A stretch of 64,000 bases of DNA, taken from the IMG/VR virus record IMGVR_UViG_3300045988_161728; one strand, given 5' to 3'. The stretch comes from a virus. Taxonomy: Duplodnaviria; Heunggongvirae; Uroviricota; Caudoviricetes. A model generated the notes under the pieces. That model was not told the origin of the DNA. It did no database searches and saw only the letters and a program-made list of their open reading frames with translations. A program made the translations under genes and the position numbers. Shown here in pieces: positions 45,565 through 48,253 of the stretch (the first letter of the stretch is position 1; the number at the start of each line of letters is the position of its first letter).

Positions 45565-45753
45565 GTGGTAGTGCACTTTAACATCGGGAGAATAATCGTG
45601 TCATCCAAGGTTAATTATGAGTCGCTGGCATCGGTCATGCCGCGTAATGAACAGGAAACAGATGCTGTAGTGGACCCTGTAATCGCTGAAATGAATGCTC
45701 GCCTGGAGGCTGAATTTGCAGCTGAGAATGAACATACCACCCAGGGCGACTAG
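45565..45753 (+). CDS. Small hypothetical protein
   Basis: 62 aa acidic ORF. Confidence 0.3.
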   Translation: MVVHFNIGRIIVSSKVNYESLASVMPRNEQETDAVVDPVIAEMNARLEAEFAAENEHTTQGD

Positions 45754-46357
45754 GACTGTTTTTTGTGTCGGTAGCGGTCCGTCACTCACTCGTGAGGACT
45801 GTGCTGCTATAGAAAAAACTGGCTGTTCAATCATCGCGGTTAACAATTCCTGGCAGATGTTCGATGACATTTATGCCTTATACGCCGGTGATTTGTCATG
45901 GTGGAAGCAATACGGTTCCACCATACCGGGAGGGAGGTTCCGCAAAGTGACAGCCAACCTGGCGGCGGCGAAATCATTTTCGTTGGAGTACAGGCGATAT
46001 TGTGGACCGGCGGAAGGGGTAAATAGCGGCGCGCAGGCTATCAGTCTGGCTGCTGAATCAGGGGCTGAAGTAGTGGTATTAGTCGGCTATGACTGTTCTC
46101 TGCAAAACGGCCTTCATTGGCATGGCGCGCACCCTCAAGCCCTACGGAATCCAACGCAGGTGTCTATTTCAAAATGGCAACAGCAGTTCCTGGATACCCG
46201 CAAAAAACACGCAGATTTACATATTTTGAATGCAAGTAGGAGCAGTGCAATTCAATGTTTCCCAAGAATAAATTTAGAGGCAGTGATCGCGTTATTATCG
46301 TCGGCAGTGGCCCAAGCGCCGCAAACTTTGTTGCGCCGCGCGGAGTGCCGATTATAG
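45695..46357 (+). CDS. Rossmann-like protein of unknown function (paralogue 1)
   Basis: VGSGPS..IIAVN..LVGYD motif series shared with the next gene; likely start MNIPPRA at about 45728. Confidence 0.45.
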   Translation: MLAWRLNLQLRMNIPPRATRTVFCVGSGPSLTREDCAAIEKTGCSIIAVNNSWQMFDDIYALYAGDLSWWKQYGSTIPGGRFRKVTANLAAAKSFSLEYRRYCGPAEGVNSGAQAISLAAESGAEVVVLVGYDCSLQNGLHWHGAHPQALRNPTQVSISKWQQQFLDTRKKHADLHILNASRSSAIQCFPRINLEAVIALLSSAVAQAPQTLLRRAECRL

Positions 46358-46881
46358 CGGTCAATGGGGCCATCGACTGGCTGAACCGCGCTTCTTATTT
46401 TTTCACCCTTGATCCATCCCCAGACAATATGCGGCGCGTTGGTCGTGGCCGCCGTCGCCGTGGTGTTTGTTATTGCATGGCACTACCCGATGTTAAAGAA
46501 CGTGAAGTCAGAGATGGCGTTCTGTGCTTCCGTCGTGTGGCTGAACGCGGCATGGAGCCAAAAAATACGAATTCTCCCGAGTGGTGGGCGTGGCGCTGGT
46601 CCGCACATTTCGGCCTTTGCGAAGATGAGAATGAAATTGCCAGCGGCAATAGTGCATATGGTGCTCTGAACCTGGCTTTCCATATCGGATTCAAACATGT
46701 AGCTCTGGTGGGCGTTGACGCTACGCAAGAACTACGCGTTCACTCCGGCGGCACGCCAAAAAATCTAAGTCACCTGCCTTTGTTATTCCAGTCTGCGCGT
46801 GAACAGATTGACGTTGTTTCATGCGGGAAAATGGGAGGTATTCCGCAGATGACTCTTAAAGAATGGCTGAAGAATACATGA
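46255..46881 (+). CDS. Rossmann-like protein of unknown function (paralogue 2)
   Basis: IVGSGPS..IIAVN..LVGVD; overlaps the 3' end of paralogue 1 in another frame. Confidence 0.45.
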
Positions 46882-47555
46882 TGGCACCCACAATTTATCA
46901 CCGTATCGACGGTACCAAATACAGGAATGTCTGGGTTGTTGGTGATCTGCATGGTTGCTACACCAGACTGATGTCCGAACTCCATCGTGTGGATTTTGAC
47001 CCGGCGCAGGATTTACTGATATCGGTCGGCGACCTTATCGATCGCGGTACTGAAAATGTCGAATGTCTGGAACTATTGCAGATGCCCTGGTTCAGGGCAG
47101 TGATGGGGAACCATGAGCGGTTGATGCTCGATGCGTTAAGTCCTGATGGCAACGTGAATAACTGGCTAATGAATGGCGGACAATGGTTCTTCATGCTGGA
47201 CACTGATCAGGAAATATTAGCCAGGGCGCTGGTGGAGCTGGTAAAGCGTCTGCCCTATATCATTGAGTTGAACACCGGGCAAGAAACTATCGTTATAGCC
47301 CATGCCGACTATCCGGATAATGAATACCAATTCGGTAAGGAGGTGCCGCTTTTCAACGTTGTCTGGGCGCGCGAGCGTATCAGTGATTCGATGGATGATA
47401 TTGGTGGCGAAATTTCGGGCGCAGATCGTTTTATCTTTGGTCACACTCCGGTGAAAAGCCCGAAGACATTCTGGAATCAGCAGTATATCGACACTGGTGC
47501 CGTATTTTGCGGAAACCTGACATTGATGAAAGTGAAAGGTGATGGTGCAGCATGA
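46863..47555 (+). CDS. ppp: Ser/Thr protein phosphatase (lambda PPase / calcineurin-like)
   Basis: GDLHG, GDLIDRG, GNHE motifs. Confidence 0.8.
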
Positions 47556-48253
47556 AGATTGCTTTAGTTCTTCGCTCTGGTGGTGACTATAACGCTTCCG
47601 ATGTGCAGTGGCTGGTTAATCAACTGCCAAAAGACTATGAAATTATTTGCCTGACAGACCTGAAGTGTTTACATGTACCTGGCGTCAAAGTTATCCCATT
47701 GATCAACCAGTGGCAAAAGTGCCGTGGCTGGTGGGCGAAAATCGAGTTGTTCCGACCGGATATAACCGATGATCTGTTCTATCTGGATTTGGACACGGTT
47801 ATTGCCGGTGATATACGCCCAATCCTAGAGCATCCACCAACCAGCTTCACCATGCTTAGGGATTTTTACCATCCACAATATCGTGGTAGCGGTGCCCTGT
47901 GGATACCAAATAGTGTTAAAGCGCATATCTGGAGTTCATTCTGGCAAGATCCGGAAGGTTGGATTTCTCGTTGTGTCACTACTGAGTGCTGGGGTGACCA
48001 GGGGTTCTTACGAAAGGTTATGGGCGATGATACACCAGCATTTCAGGATCTGTATCCAGGATGGTTTGTAAGTTACAAGGCCGATGTTGTGGAACCTGGT
48101 TCAAAATATGCGAGCGCGCGTTACTCCAGGGGGAATGGGGCATTACCAAAAGACTGCCGAATAATCTTTTTCCACGGCAAACCGCGACCTCGCGAAGTGT
48201 CAGAGGATTGGCTCCCCCTTATCAGCTCATTTTTTGAGCGAGAATCAGAATAA
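47552..48253 (+). CDS. Putative GT-A-like nucleotide-sugar transferase
   Basis: 233 aa; YLDLDTVI DxD-like motif after a Rossmann-like N-terminus; weak. Confidence 0.35.

Follow-up and report, generated by a model that had tools for sequence, protein, structure and literature searches.

A putative glycan-building enzyme cassette in the pmgO-pmgQ region of P1-type phage-plasmids

Four genes of phage P1, pmgO, pmgP, ppp and pmgQ, have carried merely the label "putative morphogenetic function" since 2004. We propose that three of them, pmgO, pmgP and pmgQ, probably constitute an accessory glycan-building cassette, soluble and cytoplasmic in its products, repressed by C1 in the prophage and transcribed in lytic growth, as judged from profile comparisons, predicted structures and gene neighbourhoods. 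Few phages have been used as heavily in genetics as P1, yet placeholder names are still borne by about a quarter of its genes, and our searches of the literature found no characterisation of pmgO, pmgP or pmgQ and no link of MptE-like or WaaZ-like proteins to phages. The analysis moves these three genes from a placeholder to a defined cassette of predicted enzymes with conserved catalytic residues, part of a very large uncharacterised family (7016 cluster representatives retrieved with the PmgO profile and at least 535 PmgQ relatives in IMG/VR).

A preliminary description of the same DNA had grouped two Rossmann-like paralogues, a phosphatase and a DxD-motif protein into a small modification or signalling pathway. 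A modification pathway, of the glycosylation type, still looks right for PmgO, PmgP and PmgQ; the phosphatase drops out of it, signs of signalling are lacking, and there is no support for modification of DNA, which we rejected on finding no hydroxymethylase context near the cassette. To our knowledge, P1 DNA is conventionally modified and not hypermodified.

Location, regulation and dispensability

The window, the whole 64,000-nt stretch of DNA analysed here, represents a P1-type phage-plasmid: positions 44600-50500 are 99.2% identical to phage P1, and the four plus-strand ORFs singled out previously were all recovered and map onto pmgO, pmgP, ppp and pmgQ of the P1 record. The same four ORFs are intact in the records of P1, P7, SJ46 and RCS47. 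According to the P1 annotation, the plus-strand operon running from pmgL to pmgQ is driven by LPpmgL, one of a pair of divergent late promoters (LP26/LPpmgL, 44588..44616, no mismatches in the window). The C1 repressor operator O26 (formerly Op82; 44631..44647, minus strand), also annotated in P1 and free of mismatches, overlaps the predicted sigma-70 promoters of pmgL. Two genes upstream in the operon lie outside the cassette, pmgL (44705-44950, plus strand), encoding a DksA-like zinc finger, and pmgM (44953-45531, plus strand), encoding a VRR-NUC nuclease-like protein. Ahead of the cassette itself stand two further elements of the P1 annotation, the predicted sigma-70 promoter PpmgN (45499-45525), with two mismatches in the window that include a change in the -10 hexamer (TATGCT to CATGCT), and the C1 operator Oppp (45538-45554), which is identical; their position implies that the cassette is repressed in the prophage.

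A small acidic ORF of 51 aa with no match in Pfam, pmgN (45598..45753, plus strand), overlaps the start of pmgO. On the same strand follow pmgO (45695..46357; 220 aa, with an alternative start at Met12, position 45728), pmgP (46255..46881; 208 aa), ppp (46863..47555; 230 aa) and pmgQ (47552..48253; 233 aa), and no transmembrane segments were detected in the cassette proteins. The downstream boundary is formed by the C1 operators OpmgRa and OpmgRb and the promoter PpmgR (48255..48320, without mismatches to the P1 annotation), where a separate transcription unit, pmgR-pmgS (head completion), begins.

All four genes are dispensable in P1. The efficiency of plating under CRISPRi was 0.7-1.4 for pmgO, pmgP, ppp and pmgQ (PMC10695390). 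In a second study 24 of 29 P1 knockouts showed no defect, pmgO, pmgP and pmgQ were not among the five essential genes, and PmgC and PmgG were the only Pmg proteins in the virion proteome (PMC9024508). The original annotation, by which these would be morphogenetic, structural or assembly proteins, can point to the late promoter of the operon, to pmgR and pmgS nearby and to relatives located in head modules; against it stand enzymatic folds with conserved catalytic-type residues, dispensability for plaque formation and virions in which PmgO, PmgP and PmgQ went undetected. We consider it largely refuted and give it almost no credence, in line with the preliminary description, which had argued against structural genes. 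The lack of a plating phenotype in P1 knockouts is also an observation that counts against a glycan-related function.

Fold, paralogy and overlap of PmgO and PmgP

On the evidence of their family profiles, PmgO and PmgP are true paralogues. Direct BLASTP aligns the N-terminal motif region alone (E 0.003), and the two family profiles align over their full length (hhalign probability 97.9%, E 3.6e-13), an end-to-end alignment that places the resemblance well past chance. The ordered motif series noticed earlier was located in its entirety in both proteins, as CVGSGPSL (24-31), IIAVNN (46-51), VLVGYDCS (128-135) and HWHGAH (141-146) in PmgO and as IVGSGPSA (15-22), IIAVNG (33-38), ALVGVDAT (150-157) and HSGG (163-166) in PmgP. 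Invariant positions in the PmgO family are GPS28-30, N50, D66, WW69-70, SG111-112, G131-YDCS135, H141, H143, H146, W161, N179 and R182, and those of the PmgP family include N37, D53, N58, R94, W111, R114, NS132-133, D155 and H173; the His cluster of PmgO is missing from PmgP. The ordered nucleotide-binding motifs (an N-terminal GxGPS loop, an Asn after strand 2, (T/N)SG and GxD) are invariant or nearly so in both families.

The nucleotide-binding, Rossmann-like character suspected for the pair can now be given a family, the MptE-like/Maf/GT42 superfamily, and we annotate the two products as paralogous transferases of this fold with predicted activity. Predicted structures of both display a Rossmann-like alpha/beta fold in common with Maf, MptE and Cst-I, and a structural search with both models, a check that had been proposed for them, returned the glycosyltransferase Maf as the top match of each; matches in BFVD were all unnamed or MptE-like phage proteins. 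The Pfam MptE-like/DUF115 model (PF01973) scores PmgO at 23.4 bits and PmgP at 20.9 bits, under its gathering threshold of 34.6 bits, and scores homologues and fusions of the two above it (P0051, 44.6 bits; P0324, 43.6 bits; P0306, 41.5 bits). Single-sequence searches of the PDB gave nothing useful for PmgO or PmgP, and the PmgP family profile had no match there; the PmgO profile aligns to Cst-II at GxGPS and at (T/N)SG...GxD (GNGPS and TSG...GID in Cst-II). H141, H143 and H146 of PmgO fall in the loop after GxD, the place equivalent to the GT42 lid, in a segment modelled at pLDDT 60-68. The comparison with the GT42 residues of Cst-II (His188 and the phosphate contacts Tyr156/Tyr162) was made without residue-level superposition; a counterpart of the catalytic base His188 was not located in either protein, the PmgO loop being modelled at low confidence and PmgP lacking His residues of the PmgO type.

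Characterised members of this superfamily differ from the P1 pair in several respects. Maf (Magnetospirillum, PDB 5mu5; PseD/PseE) is about 630 aa long and carries extra flagellin-binding domains, whereas PmgO and PmgP, each a bare core of about 200 aa, share 15-17% sequence identity with it and occur as a paralogous pair; the phages' hosts, E. coli K-12 among them, lack the pseudaminic and legionaminic acid donors of Maf-type enzymes. Campylobacter Cst-I and Cst-II (CAZy GT42) match PmgO and PmgP without significance in sequence (E 0.4-1.4), contrast with the invariant Cys and three His that PmgO carries after GxD, and use CMP-sialic acid, which K-12 also lacks. E. coli WaaZ, the Kdo III transferase of the LPS inner core, is MptE-like too, and its donor, CMP-Kdo, is the one CMP-ulosonic donor present across all hosts seen; in the waa operon, waaZ lies beside the GT8 genes waaJ and waaO, mirroring the combination of PmgO and PmgP with PmgQ. 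The similarity to WaaZ is faint and the proteins are not orthologues. NCBIfam yielded faint matches to WaaZ and PseD, with WaaZ scores of 11.9 bits for PmgP and 20.3 bits for the fusion P0051 against cut-offs of 200 (TIGR04437) and 473 (NF007333), models that the E. coli WaaZ sequence matches at 479 and 554 bits, and hhalign of the PmgO and PmgP family profiles to E. coli WaaZ was weak (probability 6-18%).

We suggest that PmgO and PmgP, as diverged paralogues of the Maf/GT42/WaaZ/MptE fold, most likely act as a heteromeric pair, which would transfer an acidic sugar of the ulosonic type; the candidate donor is CMP-Kdo, the sole CMP-activated donor of that class available in E. coli K-12. Genes for donor synthesis of the NeuA, NeuB or KdsB type were not found among the neighbours of the cassette. 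Since the MptE-like model is their sole Pfam match, the two proteins might instead be MptE/TPK-like pyrophosphokinases, or other nucleotide-dependent enzymes with a small molecule or hydroxymethyl group as substrate, rather than glycosyltransferases. This we hold to be improbable: archaeal MptE (6-hydroxymethyl-7,8-dihydropterin pyrophosphokinase) and the thiamine pyrophosphokinases are kinases, not sugar transferases, whereas it is the glycosyltransferase Maf that heads the structural matches of both paralogues; their genomic context is unconnected with pterin or thiamine metabolism, the neighbourhood being free of genes for folate, thiamine or hydroxymethyl bases; and their linkage with a GT8 enzyme, and with FkbM, TylF, PIG-L, GT2 and pyruvyl transferase genes, is constant.

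The two genes overlap in a dual-coding segment of 103 nt (46255-46357, plus strand), where pmgP is read in frame -1 with respect to pmgO, which makes precise the overlap of about 100 bp in different frames reported earlier. A sequencing frameshift within a single gene, raised at the time as a possible cause, was ruled out, because the four ORFs are intact at the same coordinates in 72 of 83 independent P1-like contigs (97.7-100% identity) and in all reference genomes. Separate pmgO and pmgP genes are the rule in distant taxa, full-length PmgP homologues share its start, and overlaps of 94-133 nt with pmgP in the -1 frame were found at six loci, the window included, from Gamma- and Alphaproteobacteria. 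Conserved and variable segments are interleaved in the overlap, the conserved C-terminus of PmgO (CFPRxxLE) covering the variable N-terminus of PmgP and the GSGPS motif of PmgP covering the variable tail of PmgO, and nucleotide identity in the overlap is not raised among the P1-like contigs compared.

Natural fusions of PmgO and PmgP occur in both orders (P0051, P0324 and P0377 against P0306). Their existence is in keeping with the notion that the long overlap serves programmed -1 ribosomal frameshifting to a PmgO-PmgP fusion protein, as are the -1 position of pmgP at seven of eight unfused junctions and an excess of X_XXY_YYZ heptamers (eight in 1054 nt of doubly open sequence, about 1.4 expected). 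Two such heptamers lie in the overlap of the window, TTTCCCA at 46258 and AAATTTA at 46270; slippage at the latter, a canonical A_AAT_TTA (46270-46276), would join PmgO 1-194 to PmgP from Arg8. We nevertheless reject frameshifting as unsupported, and very improbable, because heptamer positions are not conserved: heptamers occur at five of seven loci, are absent from L021 and L105, and in L009 and L019 fall after the GSGPS motif of PmgP, where slippage would wreck the domain. In addition, TTTCCC is a plain consequence of the codons for a conserved Cys-Phe-Pro, pmgP begins at an ATG of its own that AGGAG precedes by 12 nt, and the unremarkable nucleotide identity of the overlap argues the same way. 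Two further proteins, P0296 and P0394, have PmgO fused to an extra C-terminal domain; a GT9 heptosyltransferase was considered for it and rejected, with no PDB match and the uncharacterised phrog_6804 as its sole link.

PmgQ and the intervening phosphatase

On profile evidence, PmgQ is a retaining GT-A glycosyltransferase of GT8-like type that keeps the diagnostic residues, in agreement with the GT-A nature first read from its DxD motif; its activity is predicted. Among PDB entries its profile matches the Skp1 galactosyltransferase (6mw5, E 3.4e-8), GlyE (5gvv, 8.8e-6), 3tzt (4e-3) and glycogenin structures (6.5e-6 to 4e-4), LgtC not being among these matches, and it also aligns with E. coli WaaJ and WaaO. 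K63, D79, D81, D149 and P213 are invariant in the family, and Q150, H208 and G209 are kept in at least 90% of its sequences; the resulting set (K63, D79-L-D81, D149-Q150 and H208-G-x-P-x-P) aligns to the TKL, DAD, GDQG and H-x-G..KPW motifs of Gat1, glycogenin and WaaJ. The alignment to CAZy GT8 (glycogenin, Gat1, GlyE, WaaJ, WaaO, LgtC) spans about 170 residues and has in common the UDP-binding Lys, DxD, DQ and the C-terminal His-x-Gly..Lys/Arg-Pro. PmgQ is nonetheless far shorter (about 200-230 aa), falls below the threshold of PF01501 (Glyco_transf_8), with no Pfam match at E <= 0.1, and has an invariant N-terminal VLRSGG motif of its own, features of a separate, mostly phage-borne family. 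In the scheme proposed here it would add a hexose from a UDP-sugar onto the same acceptor as PmgO and PmgP.

Ppp is a lambda-type Ser/Thr metallophosphatase of the PPP family, as first described (Pfam Metallophos, E 8.7e-16, 59.4 bits against a cut-off of 21.5; NinI-like PHROG, 5e-113). It has the GDxHG, GDxxDRG and GNHE motifs (MGNHE in the sequence), scores 274.9 bits against the PrpA model of NCBIfam, under the 326-bit equivalog cut-off, and is 64% identical to lambda PPase according to a note in the P1 record; next to that enzyme and E. coli PrpA/PrpB it is an ordinary family member in an unusual place.

The grouping in the preliminary description would make Ppp a working partner in a single, phospho-dependent modification or signalling pathway of four genes. 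Its gene is translationally coupled to both neighbours, sharing 19 nt with pmgP and 4 nt (ATGA) with pmgQ, and the arrangement is kept in P1-like elements as far as Pantoea alvi (59% amino-acid identity). Even so, we rate such a partnership as quite improbable. The trio co-occurs without a phosphatase in many phages: none was found in any non-P1 cassette, ppp being confined to P1-like elements among cassette-bearing loci and a methyltransferase filling the slot elsewhere. Phage D6, conversely, has ppp (90% nucleotide identity) in a set of unrelated early genes and lacks pmgO, pmgP and pmgQ, and the closeness of Ppp to the lambda enzyme weighs on the same side. Ppp is an independently acquired, lineage-specific insertion in the variable slot of the cassette, not a conserved partner.

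Distribution and candidate acceptors

Unrelated phages of Alpha-, Beta- and Gammaproteobacteria and of Bacteroidota carry PmgO, PmgP and PmgQ as a linked set whose gene order varies, the full trio being found in Enterobacterales, Pseudomonas, Alloalcanivorax, Zhongshania, Brevundimonas and Sinomicrobium and two of its three genes in loci from Methylophilaceae and Microbulbifer. Sugar methyltransferases often accompany the trio: neighbouring or fused genes code for methyltransferases of the SAM, FkbM and TylF types, as well as for additional GT-A and GT2 enzymes, for a PIG-L deacetylase and for a pyruvyl transferase. A scan of IMG/VR with the PmgP profile retrieved P1-like contigs alone, and the wider set comes from another scan, run with a divergent alignment of PmgQ. 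The usual site of the cassette is a head or packaging module: in 80 IMG/VR contigs the two upstream ORFs included large terminases and major capsid proteins, 17 of each, and the downstream ORFs 8 head-completion and 5 connector proteins. In L005 and L016 the cassette lies between the genes for the major capsid protein and the head-tail connector, a position shared by the PmgQ homologues of L107 and L108. In P1 itself it does not adjoin the major capsid gene.

The likeliest acceptor would be a virion or other late phage protein, a choice we put somewhat short of an even chance; the LPS inner or outer core, its main alternative, would be a distinctly smaller prospect, and some other acceptor makes up the rest. 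We know of no report of P1 virion glycosylation. Virion glycosylation has reportedly been described for Che8 and cluster F mycobacteriophages by Freeman and colleagues in 2023. Mycobacteriophage cassettes of this sort are also mentioned in PMC11256854. The glycosyltransferases of those cassettes are late, dispensable for plaques and decorate capsid or tail, much as proposed here; they belong to other enzyme families and to Gram-positive-type hosts, and their glycosylation was demonstrated experimentally, whereas a virion acceptor is here inferred. If it is right, virion glycosylation would extend beyond the actinobacteriophages, which would matter for immune recognition and stability in phage therapy and for delivery vectors built on P1.

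Were the acceptor LPS, nascent lipid A-core would receive, at the inner leaflet, an additional Kdo from the WaaZ-like pair and a hexose from the GT8 enzyme, masking or truncating the P1 receptor (core glucose) and limiting superinfection or the loss of progeny on debris, a new receptor-masking mechanism. P1 adsorbs to core glucose, and overexpression of WaaZ truncates the outer core. WaaZ, itself MptE-like, is the closest named sequence family, though a faint one (NCBIfam; precomputed PF27901), the core enzymes WaaJ and WaaO to which PmgQ aligns are GT8, and every named host is an LPS-bearing Gram-negative. The basic character of PmgO and PmgP (pI 9.3 and 9.5), the C1-controlled early promoter ahead of the cassette in P1 and two lambdoid prophages with relatives at the classical moron site, between lysis and terminase genes, also agree with an LPS acceptor. 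Yet the WaaZ scores of PmgP and P0051 lie far under the 200-bit cut-off, PmgQ scores higher against protein-glycan GT8 enzymes than against WaaJ and WaaO (by differing methods), and LgtC is missing from its PDB matches. Most phages, moreover, have the cassette packed in head operons, with tight or overlapping junctions in the loci read, which implies late-only expression, too late for bulk LPS turnover. We consider remodelling of the LPS core unlikely on this evidence, though it ranks first among the rival readings.

Returning to a virion acceptor, its most specific form, in which we place little confidence, would have a heteromeric Maf/WaaZ-like pair and a GT8 enzyme put a short Kdo- or ulosonic-acid glycan, often methylated, on capsid or virion proteins in P1 and hundreds of Gram-negative phages, versions in chromosomal islands glycosylating Big_1 Ig-like adhesins. 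Such a system of virion glycosylation would have no described predecessor among phages of Gram-negative hosts, and a Kdo-type glycan linked to protein would likewise be a first. Some relatives of the cassette reside in non-phage adhesin islands and, with those at moron sites, indicate that the acceptor may differ between elements.

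Operon and published phenotypes

Positions 44600-50500 of the window are 99.9% identical to vB_EcoM-813R1 and 99.2% identical to P1, and the element is a P1-type phage-plasmid. Four plus-strand ORFs match the P1 genes pmgO (45695-46357), pmgP (46255-46881), ppp (46863-47555) and pmgQ (47552-48253), with 1-3 nt differences each. All four have long been known in P1, and remote-homology labels for them are already present in PHROG; "putative morphogenetic function" is the sole annotation of pmgO, pmgP and pmgQ in the P1 record, and our literature search returned no publication characterising these three genes. 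The new contributions are the recognition of the PmgO/PmgP pair and a GT8 enzyme as one conserved cassette, its broad distribution and preference for head modules, and a concrete, testable hypothesis of its function, under which the cassette would be a case of phage-encoded glycosylation, a known kind of system.

In the P1 annotation the late promoter LPpmgL marks the beginning of the operon; immediately 5' of pmgN lie Oppp, an operator for the C1 repressor, and a predicted sigma-70 promoter, and the operon ends before pmgR and pmgS, which have separate control. The C1 operators in the window are identical to those of P1, and from this layout the cassette genes are therefore expected to be silent in the prophage and on during lytic growth. 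The predicted promoter, PpmgN (45499-45525), differs from P1 at two bases, changing the -10 hexamer from TATGCT to CATGCT next to an identical Oppp, and early cassette expression may be weaker in this element owing to the change. The neighbouring 'pmg' genes, too, seem to have enzymatic or regulatory roles and not structural ones: pmgL encodes a DksA-like zinc finger and pmgM a VRR-NUC nuclease-like protein (both within 44705-45531), and pap (49890-50396) encodes the HAD phosphatase domain of polynucleotide kinase-phosphatase.

The four genes are dispensable in P1. CRISPRi against each of them leaves plating unchanged (efficiencies of plating 0.7-1.4), and an earlier study cited in a table of the CRISPRi paper likewise lists them as non-essential (PMC10695390). 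Gonzales et al. found 24 of 29 knockouts to lack a plaque or antirestriction defect, and detected only PmgC and PmgG among Pmg proteins in virions (PMC9024508). The gene pmgN, encoding a 51-aa acidic protein (45598-45753) and overlapping pmgO, is essential by CRISPRi (efficiency of plating 1.4e-2) and non-essential in a knockout study cited in that table (PMC10695390); the CRISPRi result could be polar or off-target in origin, or PmgN may truly be needed.

The paralogous pair and its overlap

The preliminary description reported two Rossmann-like proteins sharing a motif series and overlapping by about 100 bp in different frames, and both observations hold. The motifs occur in the same order in PmgO and PmgP. 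Pairwise BLASTP aligns the N-terminal motif region only (E 0.003), and family profiles (24 sequences for PmgO, 29 for PmgP) can be aligned over their whole length (hhalign probability 97.9%, E 3.6e-13), indicating that the two are real, old paralogues. The overlap measures 103 nt and places pmgP in the -1 frame. Within it, the conserved C-terminus of PmgO (CFPRxxLE together with a helix predicted to extend to about residue 206) sits over the variable N-terminus of PmgP, and the GSGPS loop of PmgP sits over the variable tail of PmgO.

An artefactual origin of the overlap is ruled out by the start position of PmgP, which is common to its homologues, and by 72 of 83 independent P1-like sequences (80 IMG/VR contigs, L023-L102, plus L001, L006 and L007) in which all four genes are intact and keep their coordinates. 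Across this set the pmgO-pmgQ stretch has a broken ORF in two sequences and indels in four, an occasional decay that is consistent with dispensability of the cassette. Programmed frameshifting was also examined. The overlap holds two X_XXY_YYZ heptamers in the pmgO frame (46258-46276), T_TTC_CCA and the canonical A_AAT_TTA, and eight are observed across seven loci against about 1.4 expected; their positions are not conserved, leaving this mechanism unsupported.

Long overlaps with pmgP in the -1 frame recur in six loci of Gamma- and Alphaproteobacteria, the window included, and the two proteins also occur as a single fused polypeptide, in either order (O-P in P0051, P-O in P0306). These fusions and the recurrent overlap make a physical partnership of PmgO and PmgP probable, and we propose that they would act as a heteromer. 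Tandem MptE-like domains are also found in P0324 and P0377.

Distribution and genomic position of the cassette

Homologues of PmgO, PmgP and PmgQ adjoin each other, in varying order and orientation, across unrelated elements: P1-like plasmids of Escherichia and Pantoea, prophages of Pseudomonas, Alloalcanivorax, Citrobacter rodentium, Zhongshania and Brevundimonas, and one Sinomicrobium (Bacteroidota) contig. Loci of Microbulbifer and Methylophilaceae carry two of the three genes. The PmgO profile matches 7016 cluster representatives at E <= 1e-3, and PmgQ has at least 535 relatives in IMG/VR.

The phosphatase does not share this linkage. Ppp, an ordinary lambda-type PPP phosphatase, accompanies the cassette in P1-like elements only, and phage D6 carries ppp without the trio. 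The site that ppp occupies in P1-like elements, between the pmgP and pmgQ homologues, is taken in four other loci by a SAM-dependent methyltransferase (L104 9573-10133, L016 7570-8139, L021 7884-8432, L019 7573-7830), and three loci carry an additional, fourth GT-A gene. Ppp is therefore an independent insertion, a bystander rather than the pathway member it was first taken for.

In the HK97-type prophages L005, L016, L107 and L108 the cassette is flanked by the major capsid gene on one side and the head-tail connector genes on the other; in other loci it follows portal or Mu-F genes, or stands between the lysis cassette and terminase. We surveyed two ORFs on each side of the cassette in 80 diverse IMG/VR contigs, in about 46 of which the GT8 gene has an MptE-like companion. 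The upstream ORFs include 17 large terminases, 17 major capsid proteins of four Pfam families and nine connector or head-completion proteins; the downstream ones include 19 FkbM methyltransferases, two PIG-L deacetylases, one TylF, eight head-completion and five connector proteins. Such a neighbourhood characterises a glycan-building cassette that is expressed together with head genes. Fusions of PmgO to a TylF-type sugar O-methyltransferase (P0404) and to Big_1/Big_13 Ig-like domains (P0311) also point to sugar chemistry.

The metagenomic proteins P0296 and P0394 join a PmgO-like domain to a C-terminal domain of about 290 aa, which belongs to phrog_6804 (function unassigned), has no match in PDB or Pfam, and may be a further partner enzyme. 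Outside prophages, in enterobacterial chromosomes, homologues of all three proteins occur in Pseudescherichia (L103 4366-10227), Serratia plymuthica (L003 674-9102) and L109 (1343-11598), interleaved with IAT_beta inverse-autotransporter genes, Big_1/Invasin_D3 adhesin genes and a holin and lysozyme pair; in L109 the PmgO homologue is the Big_1/Big_13 fusion P0311, after which come a GT2 gene and the PmgQ homologue. This arrangement suggests that the island cassettes glycosylate Ig-like adhesins, perhaps with holin/lysozyme-dependent release.

Protein folds and proposed function

The preliminary description favoured enzymes over structural proteins, a reading that enzymatic folds, GT8-like residues and dispensability in P1 bear out. 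Structural models give PmgO and PmgP the Maf/GT42/MptE fold, with matches to the flagellin glycosyltransferase Maf (5mu5; 14.0 and 13.5), archaeal MptE (8sd5; 10.8 and 12.5) and Campylobacter Cst-I (2p56; 10.4 and 10.7), followed by SteA, thiamine pyrophosphokinases and animal sialyltransferases. That the pair might be pyrophosphokinases is compatible with the fold alone but fits the genomic context poorly. The PmgO profile meets Cst-II at the GNGPS and TSG...GID motifs. Each paralogue retains a separate set of invariant polar residues, and a Cys and three-His cluster in the loop after GxD is found in PmgO, not in PmgP. None of the proteins has transmembrane segments.

PmgQ has no match in Pfam. 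Its profile (36 sequences) aligns with solved GT8 enzymes, namely Skp1 alpha-galactosyltransferase (E 3.4e-8) and glycogenin and GlyE (about 1e-5), and the UDP-binding Lys, DxD, DQ and His-Gly..Pro motifs all coincide, giving PmgQ, by alignment, GT8-like active-site residues.

We propose that PmgO/PmgP would transfer a CMP-activated ulosonic acid and that PmgQ would add a hexose, the acceptor being a putative late phage (virion) protein. To our knowledge, E. coli K-12 offers no CMP-activated ulosonic acid donor other than CMP-Kdo; the cassette has no donor-synthesis genes beside it, and all its named hosts produce LPS. The main alternative, remodelling of the LPS core, draws support from the role of core glucose as the P1 receptor and from family resemblances. 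The cassette MptE-like proteins have faint NCBIfam matches to PseD and to the Kdo III transferase WaaZ, itself MptE-like in E. coli, and PmgQ is alignable to E. coli WaaJ and WaaO; against these resemblances stands the late, head-embedded position of the cassette in most phages, and we retain modification of a virion protein as the preferred reading.

Downstream of ban, dbn (38762-39760, plus strand) has sub-threshold matches to GT-B families (Glycos_transf_1, E 3.5e-5); dbn is therefore the fourth glycosyltransferase candidate in P1, and its product might act together with the cassette.
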